From NCBI RefSeq assembly GCF_003334405.1, contig NZ_QOWM01000018.1: a DNA stretch of 64,000 nt; one strand, written 5' to 3'. Numbering within the stretch: position 1 is the stretch's first letter; every line of letters begins with the position of its first letter. This document shows, piece by piece, positions 2,355 to 59,109 of this stretch. Below the pieces are notes generated by a model, which did no database searches, had not been told where the DNA came from, and saw only the letters and a list, made by a program, of their open reading frames with translations. A program made the position numbers and the translations under genes. Origin of the DNA: Escherichia coli (GTDB lineage Bacteria > Pseudomonadota > Gammaproteobacteria > Enterobacterales > Enterobacteriaceae).

Positions 2355-3169
2355 AAGCACTCACCTCTCTCATTTTGCCAGTAATACTGCTTACTGGTTG
2401 TTCTTCTTCCCCCACCATCTCGCCAGGTGGTGTCAATACGCCACCACCTGACATTAATGCATGGCTTAAACCACGAAGTGAAAAGCCGGATAGTCTGTCA
2501 GAAACCCGCTGGAAAATGCTGACCGACGCGGGTAAAACGCTTGGATTTCGTGGTGGCAAGGCTCAGCGTTCATGGGAGCTGATTCAGGCACTCAACGCCC
2601 GGGAAAGCACACTTAATGCCTTATACGATTTCCGGCCACTGATTAGCCCGGAAGGCTGGCTACCACCGGTTATTGATGAAGCACAGGACGTTGCTCATAT
2701 CACGCCAGATCAAATCCGGACCTCTTCCCGGGTCTGGACCATCATTCGCCCTGAACGCTTTGTCAGCAATCCACCGGGCTGGCGTGACTGGCTTCTCCGG
2801 GGGCTTTCAACAACAGCCACTCCGGGTACAGAAGGCAGCGTCGTTCCAGAAGACAGCGTGCAACGAAAAGTGTGGGAAACCGCATTACGGCAGGGATGGC
2901 AGGAAGGAAGACAAAACGCCGACCTGACGCTTGAAGCCAACCAGAAAACCCTCACCCGTGATTACCGGGGCATGATGCTGTACTCACTTCTCTGGCGTCA
3001 GGGCATGATCACCCGTCCGGATGTTTCTGATCAAATGCAAACCGTTACAGGTGACGGGAAAAAACTGGTCACTGGAGATCGTGTTCGTCGCCTTAAAAAT
3101 CATGCGGAATTCAATCTTCAGAAATCTCACTGGCGTCCGCTTATAGGCACTGAAGGAGGCTCCCGATGA
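2351..3169 (+). CDS. traI: T4BSS lipoprotein TraI (DotC-like)
   Basis: Lipobox LLTGCSS; 272 aa; overlaps traH stop and traJ start. Confidence 0.65.
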   Translation: MKALTSLILPVILLTGCSSSPTISPGGVNTPPPDINAWLKPRSEKPDSLSETRWKMLTDAGKTLGFRGGKAQRSWELIQALNARESTLNALYDFRPLISPEGWLPPVIDEAQDVAHITPDQIRTSSRVWTIIRPERFVSNPPGWRDWLLRGLSTTATPGTEGSVVPEDSVQRKVWETALRQGWQEGRQNADLTLEANQKTLTRDYRGMMLYSLLWRQGMITRPDVSDQMQTVTGDGKKLVTGDRVRRLKNHAEFNLQKSHWRPLIGTEGGSR

Positions 3170-4314
3170 ATACTCCTGATGAGTTTGGTCTTTTTCCGTT
3201 TCAGCGTTTCACTGCAGATGAACTACGGCATTTCTTTGTCTGGTGTGCCGCACATAAAGTCAGTGATGTGGATCTGACCGGTGGGTCGCCCGTATCTGTC
3301 AGTCGCTTTGGCCGACGGGTGCGTTGTTCCAGTGCAACGTTACCAACCACACTCATGTCCTCCCTGATTGATGAACTGTTCGGTCGGGAAGTCATTCCCC
3401 GCGTTCTGGCAGGCAATCCGGTTGACAGGACGATACAGATTAACGGGGATGCATCCGGGCGCTATGGTCTTAAACGCGGAGAACGCATCCGGTTACGCTC
3501 TCACCTCATTCAGGGCACATCTGGTGCGGAGGAGAAAGCAATCTCAATAACCATGCGTGTCATCCCGACAGAAATACCGGACATTCTCTCCATGAATATT
3601 GAACCAGACCTGCTTGAAGCAATGGTCTGCAAAAGCGGTCTGGGATTTGTATGTGGTGAAACCGGGTCAGGAAAATCAACGCTGTGTTCAGCACTGTACC
3701 GTTACATTATGGACAATTTCCCCGACGCCAAAATCGTGACATATGAAGACCCGGTGGAATATATCCTGGGAAATGAAAACGATCTGCTCCCACCGCATCA
3801 GGCAGAAATCGGGCGTGATGTGGTCAGTTTTGCTGCCGGACTGCGTTCTGCTGTACGACGTAATCCCGAAATTATCGGTGTTGGTGAGATCAGGGATAAC
3901 GAAACCGCCGACGCAGCGGTACAGGCAGGCAACACCGGGCATTACTGCCTGAGCACCATGCATACGAAATCTCCTGGTGAAACGCTGGCACGTCTTCTTG
4001 GGCTGTTTCCCCCTGTCATCAGGGATTCGATGGCCTGGGCTGTCCTGTCACTGTTGCAGTTCATTCTGGTTCAGGTTCTGGTCAGAACAAATGACGGTGG
4101 TCGTAAAGCCGTCCGGGAATATATCGTCATTAACGATGAGCTTCGCGACAATCTTTCCGGAATGCCACATGCAGAGTGGGGGCATCACATTGATGCCATA
4201 ATCCGGCAGGAGAAGCGCCGTATCCGGGACCAGATTCTGGAAATGTATATCCGGAATGAAGTTGACCGAAGAGAAGCGATTCTTTTTATCCCACCAGGGG
4301 AGTTACGGTCATGA
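3166..4314 (+). CDS. traJ: T4BSS ATPase TraJ (DotB/PilT-like secretion NTPase)
   Basis: Walker A GETGSGKST; 382 aa; PilT/VirB11-like overall pattern. Confidence 0.85.
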   Translation: MNTPDEFGLFPFQRFTADELRHFFVWCAAHKVSDVDLTGGSPVSVSRFGRRVRCSSATLPTTLMSSLIDELFGREVIPRVLAGNPVDRTIQINGDASGRYGLKRGERIRLRSHLIQGTSGAEEKAISITMRVIPTEIPDILSMNIEPDLLEAMVCKSGLGFVCGETGSGKSTLCSALYRYIMDNFPDAKIVTYEDPVEYILGNENDLLPPHQAEIGRDVVSFAAGLRSAVRRNPEIIGVGEIRDNETADAAVQAGNTGHYCLSTMHTKSPGETLARLLGLFPPVIRDSMAWAVLSLLQFILVQVLVRTNDGGRKAVREYIVINDELRDNLSGMPHAEWGHHIDAIIRQEKRRIRDQILEMYIRNEVDRREAILFIPPGELRS

Positions 4315-30406: not shown

Positions 30407-30439
30407 GGCCGCGCCGGATTCTGGCGCGGCCTTTTTTTT
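30407..30439. terminator. Bidirectional intrinsic terminator between trbC and nikB
   Basis: GGCCGCGCCGG-attc-TGGCGCGGCC followed by T8. Confidence 0.6.
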
Positions 30440-33137
30440 AACCTGGAGAAGGCGGTTCCCAGCGTTTATCCTGCTCCGGCGGAGGCAGTGATGCGTCATC
30501 GTTGCTGTTCGCCGCGATATAATCGCGGTAGTAGCGTTCACTTCCTTCACGGTGATGATCCACGTCCGGTCGCGTAATCCTGTAGTCTTCGTGACCGGTA
30601 CGGCCTGTCACATTATGCCAGGCAACCATTTCAGCAAAGACCTGGTTAAATTGTTTGTCGTTTCCTTCTGGTTCAAAACCCATGCGTGGATCACGCCCGA
30701 ATAATACCGGTGCAATCAAATCCAGTTTATCTGCCAGCGCATTGCGGTCATGGTGATTACGGAAAACAACCCTGTCACCATAATCCGTACAGACAAACTC
30801 TCCCGTCCGACGGTCACGGAAACGAACACTCCCGTTCTTCTGCAGACGGGCCTCGAGATCACCGGTATTACCGTATACCGGCGTTCCGCCCGGTTCACAA
30901 AGCACGACACAGCGGTCTGTCGTCGTTGTGCGTGACTTGTCTTTACGGCGATCGCGATAATCCCAGCCTCTCAGCTGCGATACAGCAGCCCTGTCTCCCT
31001 GAGCAGCCTGAATTTCGACCCACTGACGGTAAGAGGGTGGATACCACTTCCCGTCAGCAATAAGTTTCTGTCGCTCATCCCTGATGTCTTCTTTCAGTCT
31101 GATCAATGCCTGCATTCGCTGAACTTCTGCAATGTGATAATGCAGCTTACGTAATGCCGGATCATCGTACTGCGCACGAATGTGTGACTTCCGCAGACGG
31201 CATGCCTGATGAATTTCCCGACAACGTTCCCCATAACGCAGATCCGGTTTACGCCATTGTTCACGCCATGCCAGATAGCGGGCACGCAGGTCAGCACGGG
31301 CCTCAGCCCTGGCTTCACGTCGCTGCCGGCGCAGCATTGGATCACGTTTACTGCTGACCCCGTACCTGTCACTGACAGCCAGCTCCGGGTTATAGCGATT
31401 TTCAGGTTGCACCCTGTCAAACAAATCTGCTGGGGCACTCACAAAAGGTCCGGCCTGTGGCTCCGCACGCCCCAGTGTCAGATCAGGATGAATGCTGCTG
31501 GCTTTCACCGGCGTTTGCTCATGATTAAAGGCATCAACGACAACAAGCCCGTGATGTTGTTTCTGTAGCATCAGTCCCTGTTGTGCAAACAGCTCATGAC
31601 AACGCTGCCAGGTAAACTCACCCTGTGTGATCATTTCTTCAATCTGAGGGCTACAATGGCTGATGCTGTATCCCCACAGACTTTCTTTGTCAGAAAACAG
31701 TTCGCGTTTGATAGCCCCCTGCGGCCCCGTACCTGTACGCATACGGTGCCATTCTTTATCGGTCGCAGGACAGCTCTCCATACGACGACCACGGAAGCGT
31801 TCTGTTGGCGTAACCTGGCGAAAAATATCTGTTGGTACAGGCTGCCAGCCACCATCGAGTTGATTCACATTGTCGAGCGTCAGCAGTGACCATACGCTGT
31901 CAGCACGAACGGGAGTCTGGTTATGATCATAACCGTCACAGATAACCAGGTGACCATGCTGAACACGCATCCATAATCCCGCTTCAGCCAGTGTGCGGTG
32001 AATAGCCTGGCAGTTTTCCAGCCGTCCTTCCCGTGCCATTTCCGGCAGACGTTCTCCAAGATGACGACAGGCATACTGCTGCAGACTTTCTGTTTCAGCG
32101 ATTTTTTCCGGGCGAACATCAGCTGCAATGAAGTCCGGATTATAGCGTCCTGGTGCTTCCACCTGGCTGAAAATGTCTTTTGGTACTGGCGTGTAGTCAC
32201 CCATTTTTTTCATGAGTTTTTCTGCACACCAGGAAGGGCCAAACGAGTCAAGCTGTACACCTTCCCTGTTGCGATCCCAGCCATCCATCACCAGAAATTT
32301 TCCGTCCATCTGAGACAGGTACAGACCATCTTCAGCAAGACGACGATGCAGGGATAACCAGTCATGTACAGGTTCACTGCGTAAACCAGCTACCGCTGTC
32401 TGCGCAACATACTCGCGAAAAGTTTGTTTTCTCCCGCGTGTCCACGCGTTCTGGCGATCACGTTCAACGGCGGTTTTGCGAACGATACGATTTCCCGGTG
32501 CATGGACCCAGCAACCGTTATCCGGAGCAAAACCATGCTTCAGTTCAAGCTCACGGCAGGCACGACTGAGTTTTTCCTGACTCCAGGATAACCGGTTCAG
32601 ATAACCCGTTTCAGGGTGTACCCGGTTAACAGCCACATGGGCGTGCAGATTATCTGTATCAGTATGCACGGCAGAGACATACTGATGGTCGGCAAGGCCG
32701 AGTGATTTCAGCGTATGACGTACACTGTCATAAATCTGTTCCGGACGCGGGCTTTCATGTGACTGCCAGGAAAGGATGTAGTGAAAAACAGGATCAGTGT
32801 CATCTTTTGCATAGTGTGCCTGCCGGGCAATGTACTCCATATCTGCAGCGGCAGTTTCAAGAGAAGTACAGTTATGAAAGCAGGTGACACCATAAAAGTT
32901 GACCCATTCGCAGCCGTCCTTCATGACATCAACCAGCGCCACGAATGACTCATTTCGAAGACGTGTCGCATAATCAACAAGGCGACTGAAACGGCTTCGG
33001 TGCGGTTGTTCAGCCTGCGAAGAAGAAGATAAATCCAGTTCCTCATCGGTCATGTCATCCCGGACAGAGACGTAGGATACCAGGTCTTCGAACGAAGACT
33101 TGCCGTCCCTTCTCTTTTTCGGAATGACTGCATTCAC
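30438..33137 (-). CDS. nikB: Relaxase NikB (MOBP-type)
   Basis: 899 aa; conserved relaxase histidine cluster (HAHVAVN-like); immediately downstream of nikA and oriT. Confidence 0.85.
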   Translation of the reverse strand: MNAVIPKKRRDGKSSFEDLVSYVSVRDDMTDEELDLSSSSQAEQPHRSRFSRLVDYATRLRNESFVALVDVMKDGCEWVNFYGVTCFHNCTSLETAAADMEYIARQAHYAKDDTDPVFHYILSWQSHESPRPEQIYDSVRHTLKSLGLADHQYVSAVHTDTDNLHAHVAVNRVHPETGYLNRLSWSQEKLSRACRELELKHGFAPDNGCWVHAPGNRIVRKTAVERDRQNAWTRGRKQTFREYVAQTAVAGLRSEPVHDWLSLHRRLAEDGLYLSQMDGKFLVMDGWDRNREGVQLDSFGPSWCAEKLMKKMGDYTPVPKDIFSQVEAPGRYNPDFIAADVRPEKIAETESLQQYACRHLGERLPEMAREGRLENCQAIHRTLAEAGLWMRVQHGHLVICDGYDHNQTPVRADSVWSLLTLDNVNQLDGGWQPVPTDIFRQVTPTERFRGRRMESCPATDKEWHRMRTGTGPQGAIKRELFSDKESLWGYSISHCSPQIEEMITQGEFTWQRCHELFAQQGLMLQKQHHGLVVVDAFNHEQTPVKASSIHPDLTLGRAEPQAGPFVSAPADLFDRVQPENRYNPELAVSDRYGVSSKRDPMLRRQRREARAEARADLRARYLAWREQWRKPDLRYGERCREIHQACRLRKSHIRAQYDDPALRKLHYHIAEVQRMQALIRLKEDIRDERQKLIADGKWYPPSYRQWVEIQAAQGDRAAVSQLRGWDYRDRRKDKSRTTTTDRCVVLCEPGGTPVYGNTGDLEARLQKNGSVRFRDRRTGEFVCTDYGDRVVFRNHHDRNALADKLDLIAPVLFGRDPRMGFEPEGNDKQFNQVFAEMVAWHNVTGRTGHEDYRITRPDVDHHREGSERYYRDYIAANSNDDASLPPPEQDKRWEPPSPG

Positions 33138-33147
33138 CGGAGAATCC

Positions 33148-33528
33148 TCAACCTTCCATTAACTGTTTACGCAATGTATTTGTAAGTTCGGTTATGGCAA
33201 CAAGCACTTCTGCGTATTCCTTGTCACCGGTTCTTTTTCCCTGAACAAACAGATGCTTCTGCATCCTTCCCAGTCTCATTAACTCCTTCAGAAAAGCATC
33301 ATCTGTACGGGAGTTAATTCGCTTATTCAGTGCTGCATTTCGGATGTAAGCAGATACAGTAAGTCCGGAATCTTCAGCTTTTTTCCTGATGGTTTCATCC
33401 TCAACAGGAGAGAATCTGAGTGTCCTGACAACTGTCTTTTGCCGTACCTCACTTTTCTTTCTTACCGCACTATCACTCACTTCAGGCTCCTTACGGGGTG
33501 TCGGGGCGAAGCCCTGACCAGATGGCAA
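33148..33528 (-). CDS. nikA: Relaxosome accessory protein NikA (ribbon-helix-helix)
   Basis: Small basic protein directly upstream of nikB and adjacent to the oriT inverted repeat; true start may be internal. Confidence 0.75.
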   Translation of the reverse strand: MPSGQGFAPTPRKEPEVSDSAVRKKSEVRQKTVVRTLRFSPVEDETIRKKAEDSGLTVSAYIRNAALNKRINSRTDDAFLKELMRLGRMQKHLFVQGKRTGDKEYAEVLVAITELTNTLRKQLMEG

Positions 33529-33585
33529 TTGTAATAGCGTCGCGTGTGACGGTATTACAATTGCACATCCTGTCCCGTTTTTCAG
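33495..33585. other. oriT: Origin of transfer (oriT), R64 type
   Basis: Imperfect inverted repeat AATTGTAATAGCGTC/GACGGTATTACAATT at 33527-33562 followed by the nick-region sequence TGCACATCCTGTCCCG; lies between nikA and the leading region. Confidence 0.8.
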
Positions 33586-33707
33586 GCCATTATAGCCTGT
33601 TATTTTTGTGCATCATAGTCTTATGCAGACGGCAGAGGCAGGGCGCAGCCCTGCCAGGAGGCAGTTTTTGATGATAAAATCAGACTTCAACATGAAACGG
33701 AGAGAAA

Positions 33708-34049
33708 GTGCCAATGGCTTCTAAAAAATTTTACTCAGATGATGACATCCAGCTGGCAAAAGCTGCCTTATCGGAATTGCCGGACCTCACCGCTCAACGG
33801 AAAACATTGCGTGATTTTCTTGATGCCATTCGTGATGACATCATTGTCCTGGTAAGGACAAAGGGTTATACACTGGCAGATGTTCGTGACACGCTCAAAA
33901 ATGCAGGGTATGAAGTAGGAGAGAAGGCACTTCGTGACATTATTCGGGAAGCAGAATCGAAAAAACCATCCCGCCGTTCTTCCTCTAAAACAGCACCTAA
34001 AAAGACAGATTCAGCCAGGAAAGATGGCATCGATATGAACAACAATTGA
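33708..34049 (+). CDS. Hypothetical basic protein next to oriT
   Basis: 113-aa ORF, lysine/arginine/serine-rich C-terminus; no recognised domain. Confidence 0.3.
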   Translation: MPMASKKFYSDDDIQLAKAALSELPDLTAQRKTLRDFLDAIRDDIIVLVRTKGYTLADVRDTLKNAGYEVGEKALRDIIREAESKKPSRRSSSKTAPKKTDSARKDGIDMNNN

Positions 34050-34134
34050 TGTGACAATGTCACATCATGTTCTGAGATTATGATGATTACAGAAAAAAAA
34101 GCCCCGGTATAAATACCAGGGCTTTTCTGTTTAA

Positions 34135-34986
34135 TCAGACTCGTGGCGGCAATGAACCAGGATAATGCCGTGCAATAATATCATTCAGTTTTTCAACAAG
34201 GTCAGGACGCTTAAAGACAATGTGTACGGTCCCTTTCTGGTAGCCACGCACCGTAAAATATTCCCCTTCTAACAGCTTACCGACATTGTCGCCGTTCCCG
34301 AGAAATTCACCATACTGCGCCCCGATGCTGCTCCGGAAGTCAGGAACGTTGCGCCCCTCCAGCAGATAAAACGGACGTACCAGGTCATCCAGTGCCTCTC
34401 GTCCGCTGCAGTCCAGCGTCACACGCCCGTTACTCCAGCGGTACAGCAGGTTTTCAATAATGATTTTCTTGCCCAGACGGCATGGATTGTTGGTTCTGTA
34501 ATCCCATGACAGTTTCCTGTAGACATCAATCAGTCCCTGTTCAAATGTCTGCATCTTACTGGCATTCAGATGGCGAAAAGTTGCCAGCACATTGTCCAGG
34601 GTGATTTCAGGACAGGTGTCGCTCATCAGCTGGCTGTTCCACTCATCACGCTGGCATGAACTCATGAAGGTGTACATCCCCGTATCCGTCATCAGGCGGT
34701 CCCAGATTTTACGGTCGGCAAGACGGGTGATATTCCTTTTCACTTCTTCCGGTTTATCCATGCACCGAATGGAGTCGGTCACGCAGTCTTCAAAACCGTA
34801 AAGAAAAATATCACCTGACGCATCAAGCAGAATCCTGCGCGCTGTCGCCAGGCATTCCATCGCCTGCATGAACAGTGCAATACCTTCGTTACGCTGCGCG
34901 ATGATGCGGTCGATGGCCACAGACGGAATAACATCTGTCGTGCCGGCAGTATTCAGGTCAGCAGTGGGTAAAGTCTGATTCATCAC
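34135..34986 (-). CDS. Leading-region hypothetical protein (first large gene after oriT)
   Basis: 283-aa ORF immediately downstream of ssi repeat copy A; no recognised domain. Confidence 0.4.
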   Translation of the reverse strand: MMNQTLPTADLNTAGTTDVIPSVAIDRIIAQRNEGIALFMQAMECLATARRILLDASGDIFLYGFEDCVTDSIRCMDKPEEVKRNITRLADRKIWDRLMTDTGMYTFMSSCQRDEWNSQLMSDTCPEITLDNVLATFRHLNASKMQTFEQGLIDVYRKLSWDYRTNNPCRLGKKIIIENLLYRWSNGRVTLDCSGREALDDLVRPFYLLEGRNVPDFRSSIGAQYGEFLGNGDNVGKLLEGEYFTVRGYQKGTVHIVFKRPDLVEKLNDIIARHYPGSLPPRV

Positions 34987-35023
34987 ATTGTCTCCTCATC
35001 GTCACGACTGCCGGGTCAGCCAG

Positions 35024-35440
35024 GTCATCTCCCGGAGGAGCGAAGCTCCTTCTGCCGTCCGGGTCTTCGGGGATTTCCCCGCAGTGGACCTTTCCGACGG
35101 GGGACGCTCACCACGTCACGGGGCAGTTGTCCGGGGGCAGACGCAAAAGTTTTTGACGCCTGCGGCAAAAAGTTTTGTGGCTGGTACATCTCTCCCCTGG
35201 ATGACTGAAACGGGATGTGGTCGTGTATGTACCCCCGGAAAGTCCGTCTGCGGAGAACGGGCCGCAGGGCGGCGGCAGGCAGGCAGAGAGAACTGCGCCA
35301 TCAGGCGCAGTGGCCTTACACACCGTAAGGTGTGCAGGGAGCGCCGCATCCGGCGCGACCGGAGAAAACCGACGGCACAACAACGGCATGCGGTGGTCAC
35401 TGGTACACCACTCCCGCACAGGTGAAAACAGAGAAAACCG
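35024..35440. repeat. Frpo/ssi-like GC-rich repeat, copy A (family 1)
   Basis: Shares a conserved core (CGGAGGAGCGAAGCTCCTTCTGCCGTCC ... CCGCAGTGGACCTTTCCGA ... CGCAAAAGTTTTTG) with copies at 37890 and 44236. Confidence 0.55.
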
Positions 35441-35456
35441 CACGACATCTACAACT

Positions 35457-35550
35457 AAAAAAAGTGAAATTTCTTCACTTTTTTACACTTATTTATTGCG
35501 TTGATTTGGTGATTGTGATGATAAAATAAAGTGAAGTTTTTTCACTTTTT
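35457..35550. promoter_or_regulatory. Two palindromic operator-like sites AAGTGAA-N5-TTCACTT flanking a promoter-like region
   Basis: Palindromes at 35462-35480 and 35529-35547; TTGATT and TGATAA hexamers between; AAGGTG SD before ATG 35563. Confidence 0.4.
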
Positions 35551-35562
35551 CAAAGGTGTTTT

Positions 35563-35814
35563 ATGACCGGCTGGGAACTGCGAATCTGGCGAAAAAGCAT
35601 GCTCTGGTCACGCGAAAAAGCGGCCAGAGAATTTGGCGTGACACAGAGAACATGGCACGCCTGGGAAAATGCGGATCAGGTGGATGTCACCGTCTGGAGG
35701 ACCACCCAGGCACTTTCAGTCCGTGACCTGCTGCCTCACATGCAGGGGATGCGCAAGGCAGATATCATCAGGCGTCTGGAAAATGAACTGGGGGAAACGG
35801 CAGAGGATGTGTGA
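35563..35814 (+). CDS. Small XRE-like helix-turn-helix regulator
   Basis: 83 aa; HTH-like segment SREKAAREFGVTQRTWHAWE. Confidence 0.45.
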   Translation: MTGWELRIWRKSMLWSREKAAREFGVTQRTWHAWENADQVDVTVWRTTQALSVRDLLPHMQGMRKADIIRRLENELGETAEDV

Positions 35815-35844
35815 GCGTGATTCACAGCCTGGCTGAATGCCAGG

Positions 35845-36066
35845 CTACTGCTCATCAGGAAACAGTTTTTTCAGTTCTTCACCGGAAAGTCCGGTCGCCT
35901 CCTGAATCCGTTCCGGCGGCCAGCCCATATCCCGCAGCCGGCAGGCTATTTCCCGCGCCACTTCAAGAGCGCCTTTTTGAATAAGACGTTCTGCAATCGT
36001 CATGCTGTTTGCTCTGCTCCTGCTGGCAAAAAAGCCCGGGATTTTGCCGGGCTTTGCGGTTCTCAT
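35845..36066 (-). CDS. Small protein homologous to the C-terminal tail of the upstream Rpn nuclease
   Basis: Start ATG overlaps Rpn stop (TAATG); MTIAERLIQKG...IACRL...ATGLSGEELKK parallels Rpn tail MTIAERLEQKG...IACQL...ATGLSDDELKK. Confidence 0.5.
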   Translation of the reverse strand: MRTAKPGKIPGFFASRSRANSMTIAERLIQKGALEVAREIACRLRDMGWPPERIQEATGLSGEELKKLFPDEQ

Positions 36067-36980
36067 TAGTGAGTTATTTTCTTCAGTTCGTCATCGGAAA
36101 GTCCGGTAGCCTGCTTAATCTGCTCCGGCGTCATCCCCATTTTCTGAAGCTGGCACGCAATAGCCAGGGCTTTTTCAAGCGCTCCTTCCATGCGTCCTTC
36201 CATCCTGCCTTCCTGGCGACCTTTTTGCTCAAGACGTTCTGCGATAGTCATCAGTTTATCCTCATGCTGCGGCAGACGCTCAGCCAGCGCCCGCATAAAT
36301 TCCGGTGATACAGAGTCCCCTGCGTTAACGATGTAATGAATCAGAACACGCACCTGCTCGTCTGAAATTTCCACCATGACCTGCGGGAGTTTGTCCAGCA
36401 GCTCCATCATGTCACGATGGCGGATATGCTTCATCAGCAGCGTCAGTGCGGCCATCCGGCGATGGTTCATGATTTCATTGTCATCAACGACAGTGATATC
36501 AACCAGCGGAAACGGCTTTGTGTATATTTTAGCCGCAAGTGCCGGATTCTCAAAACAGTCCAGCCAGTTCATGCTGTACGGATACGGGCTGCGCTCACCA
36601 TGATAGAACAGCACCGGAATCACCAGTGGCAACGTTTTGTGCTGCTCCAGATGTCTCTGCATCGCCGCCACACTGTAACGTAACATGCGGAAAGGCATGT
36701 ACAGATTTTCGGTGCTCTGGTGCTCGATGAGCGTATAAACATAGCCATCTTCACCCCCGGTGGTTTTCACGCTCCAGAGGATATCGCTGGCGTACTGATG
36801 CAGGTCCGGCTCAACAAAGGTGGCGGGTTCCAGCTTCAGCGTGGACAGGTCGCACAACTGCCGGTACTCCGCCGGAAGATGCAGTTCCAGAAAATCTCTG
36901 GCGACGTCGGGATTCGCCAGGAACGACCGGAACGCGGCATCGTGCGGCGTGGGCGTTGTGGTGTTTTTCTTCTTACTCAC
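36066..36980 (-). CDS. Rpn family (YhgA-like, PD-(D/E)XK) recombination-promoting nuclease
   Basis: GTG start with AGGAGG SD; N-terminal TPTPHDAAFRSFL motif and overall pattern typical of Rpn/YhgA proteins. Confidence 0.7.
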   Translation of the reverse strand: MSKKKNTTTPTPHDAAFRSFLANPDVARDFLELHLPAEYRQLCDLSTLKLEPATFVEPDLHQYASDILWSVKTTGGEDGYVYTLIEHQSTENLYMPFRMLRYSVAAMQRHLEQHKTLPLVIPVLFYHGERSPYPYSMNWLDCFENPALAAKIYTKPFPLVDITVVDDNEIMNHRRMAALTLLMKHIRHRDMMELLDKLPQVMVEISDEQVRVLIHYIVNAGDSVSPEFMRALAERLPQHEDKLMTIAERLEQKGRQEGRMEGRMEGALEKALAIACQLQKMGMTPEQIKQATGLSDDELKKITH

Positions 36981-37044
36981 GGTTCCTCCTGGTGAGATGT
37001 CTGAACGTATCCTGCCGCCTGCACAGGCAGACGGCAAGGGTTAA

Positions 37045-37311
37045 TCAGTGGCAGACCCGCTCAATTTCAAGCGCGCGGAGCAGGTGGCCCCATTCGCTGA
37101 CTTTCATGGCGGGGATACGCACCCGCTTCTGCTCACTGCAGCGTCTGGCGATATGGCCGCTCATCGCCAGGACGTCCGGGTTAATCTCATCCTGTGCCAG
37201 CTCCTGACGTCTGAAGCGGGTATGGCGGTGCAGGGGTTTATTCTCCCGCAGGCACTCTTCACGCAGACGCTTTACATACTCGGCGGTTGCGAAGATAATT
37301 GATGGTCTCAT
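37045..37311 (-). CDS. Hypothetical protein (88 aa)
   Basis: ORF in the same transcription unit as the upstream 144-aa gene and Rpn; no recognised domain. Confidence 0.3.
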   Translation of the reverse strand: MRPSIIFATAEYVKRLREECLRENKPLHRHTRFRRQELAQDEINPDVLAMSGHIARRCSEQKRVRIPAMKVSEWGHLLRALEIERVCH

Positions 37312-37404
37312 GGCATAATCTCCATAGATAGTGATTGAGATGCCGGACTTCCTGGCGGGGAAGCGCCGGCGGAGAGAGGCAGGGTTTATCGCCCTGCCTC
37401 TTTT

Positions 37405-37839
37405 TCATTTCGGACAGCGACGCAGTGCCAGCGCGAGCGCTTTCATCTTCCAGCCTTCCGGCGTGCGGTACATCACCTTCCAGTAGCCGTCGATGAACAC
37501 ATAATGGAAGCGCACCTCTTCAGTGCTTTCAGTGGCAATAGCTTCCCTGAAAGAACGGTACTCACGCGCCTCACTGTCCATCCGGAAACCACTGTCACGT
37601 CCGTAATAAGCCGTCACACCGTCCACCGGGTTCTGAAGCGTATGCCCGGCGGGTTTGTCGCAACGGGGACCGAGGCAACGGATATCACCGTGTTCAACCA
37701 GGGCTTCGGCCTGCTGACCGGTGGCATAGTGGGTATGCAGGATGCGACCGTTCCAGGTCGGCTCACCGTGCAGGTGGCAGTAAACGGTACGGAACACCCC
37801 GTCGCGGCAAAAAACGGAAATCGTGCTGCTGACAGTCAT
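37405..37839 (-). CDS. Hypothetical Cys/His-rich protein (144 aa), first gene after ssi copy B
   Basis: ORF with SD; no recognised domain. Confidence 0.4.
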   Translation of the reverse strand: MTVSSTISVFCRDGVFRTVYCHLHGEPTWNGRILHTHYATGQQAEALVEHGDIRCLGPRCDKPAGHTLQNPVDGVTAYYGRDSGFRMDSEAREYRSFREAIATESTEEVRFHYVFIDGYWKVMYRTPEGWKMKALALALRRCPK

Positions 37840-37889
37840 GAAAACGTCTCCTTCTGCTGAATCAGGTCGCCGGGCCGACCGGTTGCTCC

Positions 37890-38430
37890 CCGGAGGGGCG
37901 AAAGCCCCTTCTGCCGTCCACTTCTTCGGGGTTTCTCCCCGCAGTGGACCTTTCCGATGGGGCGTCCGTCACCACGTCACGGGGCAGCTGTCCGGGGGCG
38001 GACGCAAAATTTTTTGCCGGGTTTATGGCTAAAAATTTTGTGGACGGTATATCTTCCCCTGGACTGCTGAAACGGGATGTGGTTACTCCAGCCCCCGGAA
38101 AGTCCACAGCGGGAAACAGGCCGCAGGGGTGGCGGCGGAAGGGTTGACTGCGCCATCAGGCGCAGTTGCCTTACACACCGTCAGGTGTGCAGGGAGCGCC
38201 GTTTCCGGCGCGACAGGGGCGGCGCGACCGGAACGGTCGCTGCAAGCCTGGTTTTTCAGACATCGGACCGTAGCGGCAGCCCGAAACCGCGCCAGCGGGT
38301 TCGGCGGAGACTGGCGGGTGCGCCAGCAGCTGCCTGTCGGAGTCGGGCCTGACGACCGGATGCCGCCAGGCAGCCGGGAGCCGAAGGTGTCCCCGCCTCC
38401 GGAAATCAGAACAACAGAAACGACATAACA
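37890..38430. repeat. Frpo/ssi-like GC-rich repeat, copy B (family 1)
   Basis: About 540 bp, near-identical to copy C over most of its length. Confidence 0.55.
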
Positions 38431-38567
38431 GAAAAATGCCTCACACCATGACGGGCAGGAAGGGCAGCGCCGCAGGCGCGGCCCTCCTGCATTTCAGGCA
38501 GGCGTAAGCCTGCCAGGGTTTTCCGGCGGCCTGGCAGGCCATACCCCCGCCGGAGCGGGGGAGTAAA

Positions 38568-39068
38568 TCACCGACGGAACACATGACCGTCAATAAAGGT
38601 GAAGGAGTCCAGGAATAAATCCCGCGCATACGCCTCATAGTCAAAATAGAGCGCCACCGTCTCCGGCACGTCAGCCAGCAGGCCGGTATCACTGGCGAAC
38701 TCAACCGCAAAAGCCTCCTCACTGTCAGCCTCGCCCCACCAGGCATCGCGGAAGGTGTCAAAATCCGTCTCACCGGTATCATCCACCCAGAGACGATAAG
38801 CCTCTTCGCAGCCTTCATCCCGCGCCTGGCGGAAGCCTTCAACCCAGGCCCAGTTGATATGACATTCAGAGGCCATATTCCCCGGGAATCCCTCATAATC
38901 CTGAAACATCAGTTCAGGATCGGCTTCATCCTGGTGAAGAGCACGGCAGGCGGCGAAAAAGTCGCGCTCATCATCAAACGTGGTCAGGTCAAACCAGCGG
39001 CCAGCGATGCTTCCACAGTTGTATTTGTGCCAGGTTCCAACGTATACAGCAGGGGCAACAACAGACAT
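38568..39068 (-). CDS. ardA: Antirestriction protein ArdA (acidic DNA mimic, type I R-M inhibitor)
   Basis: 166 aa from internal Met of track ORF 38568..39473; [34 protein letters not shown] and highly acidic composition. Confidence 0.85.
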
Positions 39069-39096
39069 TCCCGAATCCTCCATAGTCACATGTTCT

Positions 39097-39430
39097 GCGA
39101 CACCGGGCGGTGCCGTGCCTCCATAAAAGCCGGGCGATAAGGCGGGGATGCACAGGGCGCAAGGGAAGCCGCAGCCTGACGCACACGGCTGGCGGGAGTT
39201 GGAGGGTGAGACCGCGAAATCTGAGCGGGTGAACGACCGGAAAATCACGGCAGACGGGAAGGAGGGACCGGGTGACCGCAGCGGCGAAGCGTACCCTTGC
39301 ATCCCTGCCAGCCCGGCTAAGATGGAGGCACGGCACAGCCCGCACACGATACGGCGGCCACAGAGCTGAAAACCCACAAGGCCATGCCCCGCATGGCCGG
39401 GTAAAAGCGGAGCCGCCGGCGACTTCCTTA
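39097..39430. repeat. ~335-bp leader repeat upstream of ardA (family 2), duplicated upstream of klcA
   Basis: Near-identical to 46050-46382. Confidence 0.6.
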
Positions 39431-39530
39431 TTCCGGCGAGTGCAGAGGACACGCCGCATGACCTCCAGACCACCCCTGATATGAAACGATCATGATCGGC
39501 GTGTCCCTGCGTAAAATATACATGCCTGGT

Positions 39531-58387: not shown

Positions 58388-58423
58388 CCTTCCATGCCGC
58401 GCCAGCAGCATGGAAGGCGGCAT
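58388..58423. repeat. 29-bp hairpin-containing repeat, copy 1
   Basis: ATGCCGCGCCAGCAGCATGGAAGGCGGCA, also at 60964-60993 with 1 mismatch. Confidence 0.5.
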
Positions 58424-58515
58424 ATTATCAACCATGAAAAATCACCTGGCGGAAAATTTACTAATTTATGGATTGTGATATTATTAAAGAGTAGAACAAG
58501 CCAGCTGAGGTATTT

Positions 58516-59109
58516 ATGGGAAAAAATCAGGAAGAAAGGAAGCCCCCCATCATTGTGGTGAAAAAACGTCGTACTTTTTCGCCACCTTCCTTATCCGAAA
58601 AAACAGATATTATCGCACCTGCATTTACTGAACAGGCGGCAGAATTCCCCCCCGTCGGAATAAATTCATCTGCCGTCGAAAAACATATCCCCGAAGCACC
58701 AGCCCGGAAGAAGAAAAAGAAAAGACATCGTTTCCCACGTCCCGCCCACTGGACCCGTGAGTATACTCACGAGTGCGTGGAAAAAATAAAGACCCTGTTT
58801 CCTCATCTTCGTGCTGAAGGCGGTGGATTTATTCCCCTGAAAATTGGCATCAGCAATGATATTTCGGCATTTCTGGCAGAAAACCCGGATACAGAACTGT
58901 CCATGGACGAATGGTTCTGTGCAGTGTCCTGCATCACCTCCCGCCGCGTATATCTGCAGCGGACCTCTGTCGCCGGCGTCCCTCGTTATGGGCTGGATGG
59001 TCATCCCGATGGGCAGGTCTCAGAAACTGAAGCACAGAGTGCTGTTCAAAGACTGGCGATAATAGAACAACGGTGGCTCAGGATGAAGGAACGGCAGACT
59101 GAGCAATAA
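58516..59109 (+). CDS. ProQ/FinO-domain RNA chaperone (FopA-like)
   Basis: FPHLRAEGGGFIPLKIGI and YL...G..RYGLDGHPDG match ProQ N-domain motifs (FPHCF...PLKIGI; DLDGNP). Confidence 0.75.
   Translation: MGKNQEERKPPIIVVKKRRTFSPPSLSEKTDIIAPAFTEQAAEFPPVGINSSAVEKHIPEAPARKKKKKRHRFPRPAHWTREYTHECVEKIKTLFPHLRAEGGGFIPLKIGISNDISAFLAENPDTELSMDEWFCAVSCITSRRVYLQRTSVAGVPRYGLDGHPDGQVSETEAQSAVQRLAIIEQRWLRMKERQTEQ

Follow-up and report, generated by a model that had tools for sequence, protein, structure and literature searches.

The 83-aa protein encoded by a small gene in the leading region of an Escherichia coli conjugative plasmid is probably a dimeric XRE-type repressor, which would bind palindromes upstream of its own gene and thereby regulate itself negatively. 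The gene lies in a 64,000-nucleotide stretch of DNA, referred to here as the window. A first-pass annotation had proposed an autoregulated repressor, a reading that comparison of sequences favors on three grounds: the fixed place of a palindrome just after the −10 element in about 25 diverged loci, islands of conservation in otherwise diverged upstream DNA, and covariation of the palindrome with a helix of the protein. The gene and its predicted control elements are as follows.

35462-35480: predicted distal operator O1, AAGTGAA-ATTTC-TTCACTT, an exact match
35519-35527, plus strand: extended −10 element TGaTAAAAT of the predicted sigma-70 promoter of the helix-turn-helix (HTH) gene, read by eye
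35529-35547: predicted proximal operator O2, AAGTGAA-GTTTT-TTCACTT, an exact match
35552-35558, plus strand: ribosome-binding site (RBS) AAAGGTG, 4 nt ahead of the ATG and kept in locus L002
35563-35814, plus strand: gene for the 83-aa XRE-family HTH protein, identified by its RBS, a Pfam match, and its dN/dS

Two copies of AAGTGAA-N5-TTCACTT had been reported at this place, and both proved to be perfect. With its A/T flanks, O1 extends to an inverted repeat of 10 + 10 bp (about 35459-35483); its center falls at about −63 relative to the predicted transcription start, and the two operators are separated by 67 bp, center to center. O2 begins 2 nt past the −10 hexamer (35522-35527) and spans the predicted +1. 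In dinucleotide-preserving shuffles the motif occurred by chance with a mean of 0.03 matches per window, and two or more matches were seen in none of 100 shuffles. A looser motif scan of the whole 64-kb window gave no further credible operator copy. The promoter-like region placed between the palindromes in the first-pass annotation fared less uniformly: the extended −10 can be read by eye, and it is identical in L002, but a consensus promoter scanner called no plus-strand promoter at the HTH gene, because the −35 element is poor. The transcription start predicted from the −10 element lies at about 35533-35536, inside O2.

The XRE-like HTH gene had been proposed from the open reading frame, and its status as a real gene was upheld by the RBS, by a match to HTH_31, and by a dN/dS of 0.08 relative to a 79%-identical ortholog, indicating strong purifying selection. 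Pfam returned only generic XRE-type matches for the window protein (HTH_31, E value 1.6e-4); among 27 members of the family, HTH_31 was matched by 20 and HTH_3 by 16 (E ≤ 0.001). An early AlphaFold run on a shallow alignment of 7 sequences was poor (pLDDT 64), and a model based on a 27-sequence alignment, with a mean pLDDT of 90.4, was used instead. The model has five helices (residues 3-12, 17-24, 28-35, 42-60, and 65-76), of which helices 2 and 3 form the HTH and residues 28-35 are the predicted recognition helix. The top Foldseek neighbors of this model were all XRE proteins (Aca2, HipB, HigA2, SinR, C.AhdI, and C.BclI), none of them reaching E < 0.1. By sequence, the closest relatives of solved structure are Aca2 (E value 2.4e-6, over residues 1-63) and HipB (E value 1e-4), both of which are DNA-binding repressors.

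A word-indexed search of 5.8 billion proteins retrieved close relatives and frameshifted fragments only, and a HMMER scan of 1.84 billion cluster representatives identified 116 proteins at E ≤ 0.001. The family is compact, at 70 to 110 aa, with an N-terminal signature of MTGxELRLWRK...AAEELGVSLRTYxxYE. It is present in at least 3,785 PLSDB plasmids, those of the pOXA-48 type included, and in some phages; the HTH regulator is carried by about 2,000 IncI-complex plasmids. Its phage counterpart in PHROGs is phrog_6962, to which no function is assigned (E values from 5e-13 to 5e-23). In Erwinia phage PEp14 (L043, 4001-4222), the family gene lies between terS and terL and is by itself on the opposite strand, and in Yersinia phage vB_YpM_44 (L044), where the gene occupies 3501-3773, a perfect AAGTGTC-ATTTT-GACACTT palindrome (3125-3150) lies about 365 bp upstream.

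We compared the upstream regions of 32 loci from a scan with one genome per species, supplemented by contig look-ups and by annotated plasmids. About 20 loci have a palindrome of the type A(A)GTG-NN-N5-NN-CACT(T) whose center lies 22 to 26 bp upstream of the ATG; they come from a dozen genera of Enterobacterales that include Escherichia, Salmonella, Buttiauxella, Erwinia, Citrobacter, Yersinia, Rahnella, Cedecea, Enterobacter, Hafnia, and Providencia; in four other loci the corresponding distance is 34 to 56 bp. The left edge of the proximal operator coincides in ten loci with the end of a −10-like hexamer (TAAAAT, TACAAT, TAGAAT, TATAAT, or similar), 31 to 36 bp upstream of the start codon. 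A second copy of the palindrome occurs 45 to 67 bp further upstream in 12 of 26 homologous loci, and Buttiauxella plasmids carry three copies at intervals of 55 to 56 bp. A further comparison is with the ortholog on the pESI-like Salmonella Infantis megaplasmid, at a dS of ~1.07 and a dN/dS of 0.08, where synonymous sites are saturated. Upstream DNA of the pESI type cannot be aligned with that of the window except at O1, the −10 element, O2, and the RBS, and the interval between O1 and O2 is likewise unalignable; as aligned sequence, these islands are a clean phylogenetic footprint.

The operator also changes with the protein. In a comparison drawn from a small number of independent clades, the two inner bases of the half-site were found to vary with residue 33 of the recognition helix: Ala33, in a helix ending in TWHAWE, is paired with GTGAA or GTGTA; Asp, Ala, Val, or Thr at this position, in a helix ending in YK(D/A/V/T)YE, is paired with GTGCA; and Arg33, in a helix ending in YKRYE, is paired with GTGAC or GTGTC in all four cases, one of them a Yersinia phage. 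In more distant members this place is taken by unrelated palindromes, TACGAAAAATTTTCGTA in Gilliamella and AATGTTCA-N4-TGAACATT upstream of the operon with the pOXA-48 homolog. Taken together, the comparison of loci gives strong indirect support to the proposal that the protein recognizes the palindromes and represses its own promoter, and it defines for the gene a predicted promoter, a putative residue that determines specificity, and a predicted operator, A(A)GTG-N9-CACT(T).

The covariation also bears on the suggestion that the palindromes serve a host factor instead, or act by folding into hairpins, either in RNA or in the transferred single strand, and that their proximity to the HTH gene is incidental. 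Both palindromes do fold as hairpins in single-strand DNA prediction, and GTGA-N7-TCAC has a superficial resemblance to a CRP site, for which the consensus is TGTGA-N6-TCACA. However, the outer AAGTG/CACTT is kept in sequence, beyond what mere pairing would demand, and the inner bases shift with the recognition helix of the protein; the spacing differs by one base from that of the CRP consensus, the stems are weak and rich in AT, and an Rfam scan of 33500-39500 gave no relevant RNA family matches. We regard an incidental placement as highly improbable, and rejected a CRP-like host site and an intrinsic terminator on the grounds of spacing, stem strength, and covariation with the protein.

Several of the compared loci depart from the simple arrangement in the window. 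The homolog on pOXA-48 (IncL; NZ_CP076010.1, L006 6543-8556) is an 82-aa protein with about 40% identity to family members; its gene is not monocistronic, being the second of a same-strand operon in which it is followed by a gene annotated 'restriction endonuclease', and the promoter region of this operon contains a AATGTTCA-N4-TGAACATT palindrome. Plasmids from Yersinia ruckeri (L010, 5184-5849), Rahnella (L019), and Enterobacter (L033) carry a gene pair for a RelE/HigB-like toxin and an HTH antitoxin close upstream of the family gene. This pair has a strong promoter of its own and two TTCGTAC-N3-GTACGAA palindromes, and in the Y. ruckeri and Rahnella plasmids it parts the distal from the proximal operator by about 810 bp.

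Copies of the operator apart from an intact gene were found on two plasmids. In CP088825.1, a near-identical plasmid of type IncK2/Z, a third perfect copy of O2 lies near the replication region (58390-58520; L041, 8390-8520); after it come the RBS, roughly 30 codons from the start of the HTH gene, and then unrelated sequence, and the copy is absent from the window. This truncated duplicate, the only extra operator found elsewhere on that complete plasmid, explains the many fragments of 48 to 55 aa entered in protein databases as 'YgeA'. Because the orphan operators of CP088825.1 and of a Pluralibacter plasmid (L022) both carry the first HTH codons, we rejected them as independent sites; they are remnants, probably left behind when repeated elements recombined.

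The name itself calls for comment, since some database relatives of the HTH protein are called 'ygeA' and others 'XRE family transcriptional regulator'. The ygeA gene of the F plasmid lies downstream of Frpo1 and is important for conjugation (Couturier et al.). We rejected homology with it: F ygeA, of 95 aa, is unrelated and shares its strand with the F leading genes, and a tblastn search of the F plasmid gave no homolog of the HTH protein. Results for F ygeA are therefore not transferable to the HTH gene, and the common name arose by chance, from naming by map position.

From the sites, the gene, its conservation, and the covariation, all of which can be read directly, we infer dimerization and binding, and the following mechanism is proposed. 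A dimer on O2, abutting the −10 element and lying over the transcription start, would exclude RNA polymerase, and occupancy of O2 would keep the output of this promoter at a low set-point, in negative autoregulation. O1, 67 bp upstream, would most likely bind a second dimer, strengthening or sharpening repression; the distal site varies in presence, being missing from about half of the homologous loci, and in spacing (45 to 67 bp), so the role of O1 is uncertain. It could instead be part of a two-state switch of the C-protein or lambda CI type, in which O1 activates at low protein concentration and O2 represses at high, yielding a delayed pulse once the plasmid is double-stranded. O1 is roughly at the position of a class I activator site and the poor −35 element might need help, 12 of 26 loci have a distal site bordering the −35 region on its upstream side, and the C proteins C.AhdI and C.BclI are among the structural neighbors of the model. 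Yet the loss of the distal site in around half of the loci and the spread in spacing are unlike a fixed activator geometry, the extended −10 could make the promoter self-sufficient, and no restriction-modification genes are attached in the window, so that such a switch seems unlikely. Autorepression from O2, the preferred reading, is nevertheless incomplete as regards biological purpose, since self-repression alone has no evident benefit. If the protein represses only itself, the outcome is a routine refinement of annotation.

The setting of the gene gives more reason for interest. The window is an I-complex conjugative plasmid, and the HTH locus is 99.7% identical to plasmids typed IncK2/Z and IncI1/B/O. 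Three features orient the locus with respect to transfer.

30438-33137, minus strand: relaxase gene nikB
33148-33528, minus strand: relaxase gene nikA
34990-35440, plus strand: copy A of an ssi/Frpo-type single-strand promoter element, immediately left of O1, which drives the leftward DUF4942 gene

The origin of transfer (oriT) is directly to the right of nikA, and the leading region runs rightwards from it, with the HTH gene and its operators inside it at about 2 kb from oriT. Leading-region genes (DUF4942, Rpn, ArdA, PsiA/B, a ParB-like gene, and SSB) are on the minus strand, so the transferred strand is the plus strand of the window, and the HTH gene, itself on the plus strand, cannot be transcribed from the incoming single strand. 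The claim that it runs opposite to all of its neighbors is correct for the immediate ones, all of which are on the minus strand (the DUF4942 gene, a small ORF resembling the C terminus of Rpn, and Rpn, with ArdA, PsiB, and SSB further off), but does not extend to a 113-aa gene beside oriT (33708-34049), which is also on the plus strand. This oriT-adjacent gene, annotated MobC in one record, keeps its position beside nikA in nearly all related loci, at 39 to 58% identity.

Copy A of the ssi element has a single-stranded DNA fold with a z score of −8.4, and in the near-identical locus L008 it resembles Frpo1 of F. The ssi1 to ssi3 elements of ColIb-P9 have been described as class 1 single-stranded DNA promoters (PMC12672017). 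There are three Frpo/ssi-type copies in the window, at about 34990-35440 (A), 37860-38440 (B), and 44210-44790 (C), with cores of 60 to 70 nt in common at 82 to 93% identity; B and C extend rightwards into a common segment that copy A lacks, A having unique sequence and then O1. A 300-nt direct repeat of 99% identity (39086-39385 and 46040-46339) has its first copy directly upstream of ardA. This repeat is consistent with the report of class 2 single-strand promoters ahead of ardA and klcA in pESBL (PMC12672017).

With an ordinary duplex promoter and a coding strand complementary to the transferred one, the regulator would be made only after the incoming plasmid had become double-stranded, in contrast to the surrounding leading-region genes, which would be fired from single-strand promoters. 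The gene might on this basis serve as a switch responding to arrival of the double strand: the protein, or the rightward transcription of its gene, arising after complementary-strand synthesis, would close or insulate the early operons with single-strand promoters, perhaps by locking the adjacent hairpin-forming element as a duplex or by collision with read-through transcription. We consider this improbable; if true, it would amount to a dedicated terminator of the establishment program in thousands of resistance plasmids. The leading regions of conjugative plasmids are now viewed as establishment and anti-defense islands fired from single-strand promoters, and the question is how that program is bounded or reset in an established plasmid; among conserved leading-region genes, the HTH regulator belongs to the few that lie on the "wrong" strand. 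Chromosomal or co-resident targets, a role in separating one leading operon from the next, and a delayed pulse like that of C proteins are each conceivable but unsupported.

The position of the gene is conserved: in at least 16 loci it is found at a distance of 2.4 to 5.5 kb from nikA and runs in the opposite direction to nikA, the relaxase gene, and the leading genes. To its left is a hairpin-rich noncoding element of 350 to 550 bp, which in many other plasmids differs from ssi and recurs upstream of the ArdB/KlcA operon; to its right is the 3′ end of the next leading operon, which is convergent. In the window, the two convergent genes are separated by the following element.

35826-35846: GC-rich hairpin with a 7-bp stem, AGCCTGG-N7-CCAGGCT, between the HTH gene and the small ORF related to the C terminus of Rpn

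The hairpin has no T-run on either strand and the scanner called no terminator here, so the convergent transcripts may overlap. The small ORF (73 aa; 35845-36066, minus strand) is just downstream of Rpn (36066-37037, minus strand) and is a diverged duplicate, at 75% nucleotide identity, of the region encoding the Rpn C-terminal tail (repeat 35866-35975/36078-36187).

The first-pass annotation had also suggested that the regulator might gate the Rpn genes or ssi copy A, at the level of expression or of read-through, and as regards Rpn the comparison went against it. Rpn is the right-hand neighbor only in loci of the IncI-complex and pESI types, its place being taken elsewhere by the ArdB/KlcA operon, PsiB, SSB, or a DUF1281-like gene; association with Rpn is thus not a conserved property of the regulator. 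The pairing in the pESI-like megaplasmid is explained by common inheritance of the IncI-type leading region and does not count as independent. No operator was found near the start of the Rpn operon (37040-38440), nor any sequence evidence for an effect of the regulator on ssi copy A or on read-through. The HTH protein was accordingly rejected as a third component of an Rpn module.

A broader form of this idea is that bound protein, or rightward transcription, blocks leftward transcription, either by keeping read-through of the ssiB-driven operon (orf144, orf88, Rpn, and the small Rpn-like ORF) out of DUF4942 and ssi copy A or by repressing a leftward duplex promoter that overlaps O2. It has some appeal: the HTH gene always faces the 3′ end of one leading operon and has the single-strand promoter element of the next at its side, the convergent genes have no canonical terminator between them, and the promoter scanner called in the window a promoter-like site pointing leftward, with O2 serving as its −35 element (GTGAAA-16-TATCAT), which L002 has as well. 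That site, however, is missing in other loci, and in the window and L002 it is inseparable from the rightward −10/O2, on which grounds we rejected a conserved leftward duplex promoter under the operators. The variable right-hand neighbor leaves nothing specific to Rpn; the orphan operators are remnants with the 5′ end of the HTH gene, not sites at other single-strand promoters; and ssi copies B and C have no operator, which also led us to reject the operator as an integral part of the repeated single-strand promoter units. A gating role of either kind is, in our judgment, quite doubtful.

Searches of the literature found no study of the 83-aa HTH gene, which nevertheless appears to be catalogued already. 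Samuel et al. (Nature 635:186, 2024; PMC11541004, Supplementary Table 1) list as family 22 a leading-region HTH transcriptional regulator with 2,333 members, at a median gene position of 2 from oriT and on strand −1, beside RpnE-like (position 3) and RpnB-like (position 4) families, and they flag families on the opposite strand as not transcribable from the incoming strand. The order HTH, RpnE-like, RpnB-like is the gene order of the window, where the 73-aa ORF corresponds to the RpnE-like family, listed next to the RpnB-like one. Family 22 (representative WP_151333485.1) and the window gene agree in annotation, strand, median position, size, and neighboring families, and the apparent identity of the two is drawn from synteny and family size rather than from sequence comparison. 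The entry is a catalogue entry, with no operator, mechanism, or function given there.

Among known systems, the best sequence match of solved structure is Aca2 (PDB 7ezy and 7vjo; Pfam Aca2_YdiL/DUF1870), whose N-terminal HTH aligns with residues 1-63 at 28 to 30% identity, including an MT-x-EL...R-W-WE motif. Aca2 represses its own expression by way of an inverted repeat overlapping its promoter, and is found in early or anti-defense regions of mobile elements. The differences are considerable, however. The HTH protein has 83 aa rather than about 120 and lacks the Aca2 C-terminal domain; the Aca2_YdiL profile (PF08965) gave no match to the window protein at E ≤ 10 and, in the 27 family members, none at E ≤ 0.001 and one at E ≤ 0.1. 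The HTH gene is monocistronic, with no anti-defense gene in its operon, the next gene being convergent and 30 bp past the stop codon. Aca2 also binds a pair of hairpins in the 5′ untranslated region of its mRNA, which the HTH mRNA would lack, given a predicted start inside O2.

XRE antitoxins of the HipB/HigA type, which are neighbors in both sequence and fold, are small dimeric XRE HTH proteins as well, each controlling its own expression from several spaced palindromes, but the HTH gene has no adjacent same-strand toxin gene. Identity with the HipB antitoxin was rejected, as the NCBIfam HipB model (PRK09726) gave 13 bits against a cutoff of 79 and there is no kinase gene nearby. The C proteins C.AhdI and C.BclI resemble the HTH protein in length (about 80 aa), XRE fold, and paired upstream palindromes, and their paired sites time expression after entry into a new host. 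The sites of a C-box form one compact unit, whereas those of the HTH gene are 67 bp apart, and identity as a restriction-modification controller was rejected for the window gene, which shares its transcription unit with no restriction endonuclease or methylase gene. ArdK/ArdR of IncN and IncW plasmids and KorC of IncP-1 are small plasmid repressors that act on palindromic sites in the first-entering region; their operators are several and stand before the leading operons under control, whereas the operators described here were found only at the regulator's own promoter. With the XRE/Cro-C1 superfamily at large, the HTH protein shares the HTH_31/HTH_3 matches and the five-helix model; its operator overlaps the −10/+1 of its own predicted promoter, in a geometry repeated in about 20 loci, and is under selection (the islands at a dS of ~1.07) and covarying with the protein (residue 33). 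By this comparison, the HTH regulator is conventional within the XRE class of repressors, if uncharacterized, and sits in an interesting place; its family appears already to have been surveyed.
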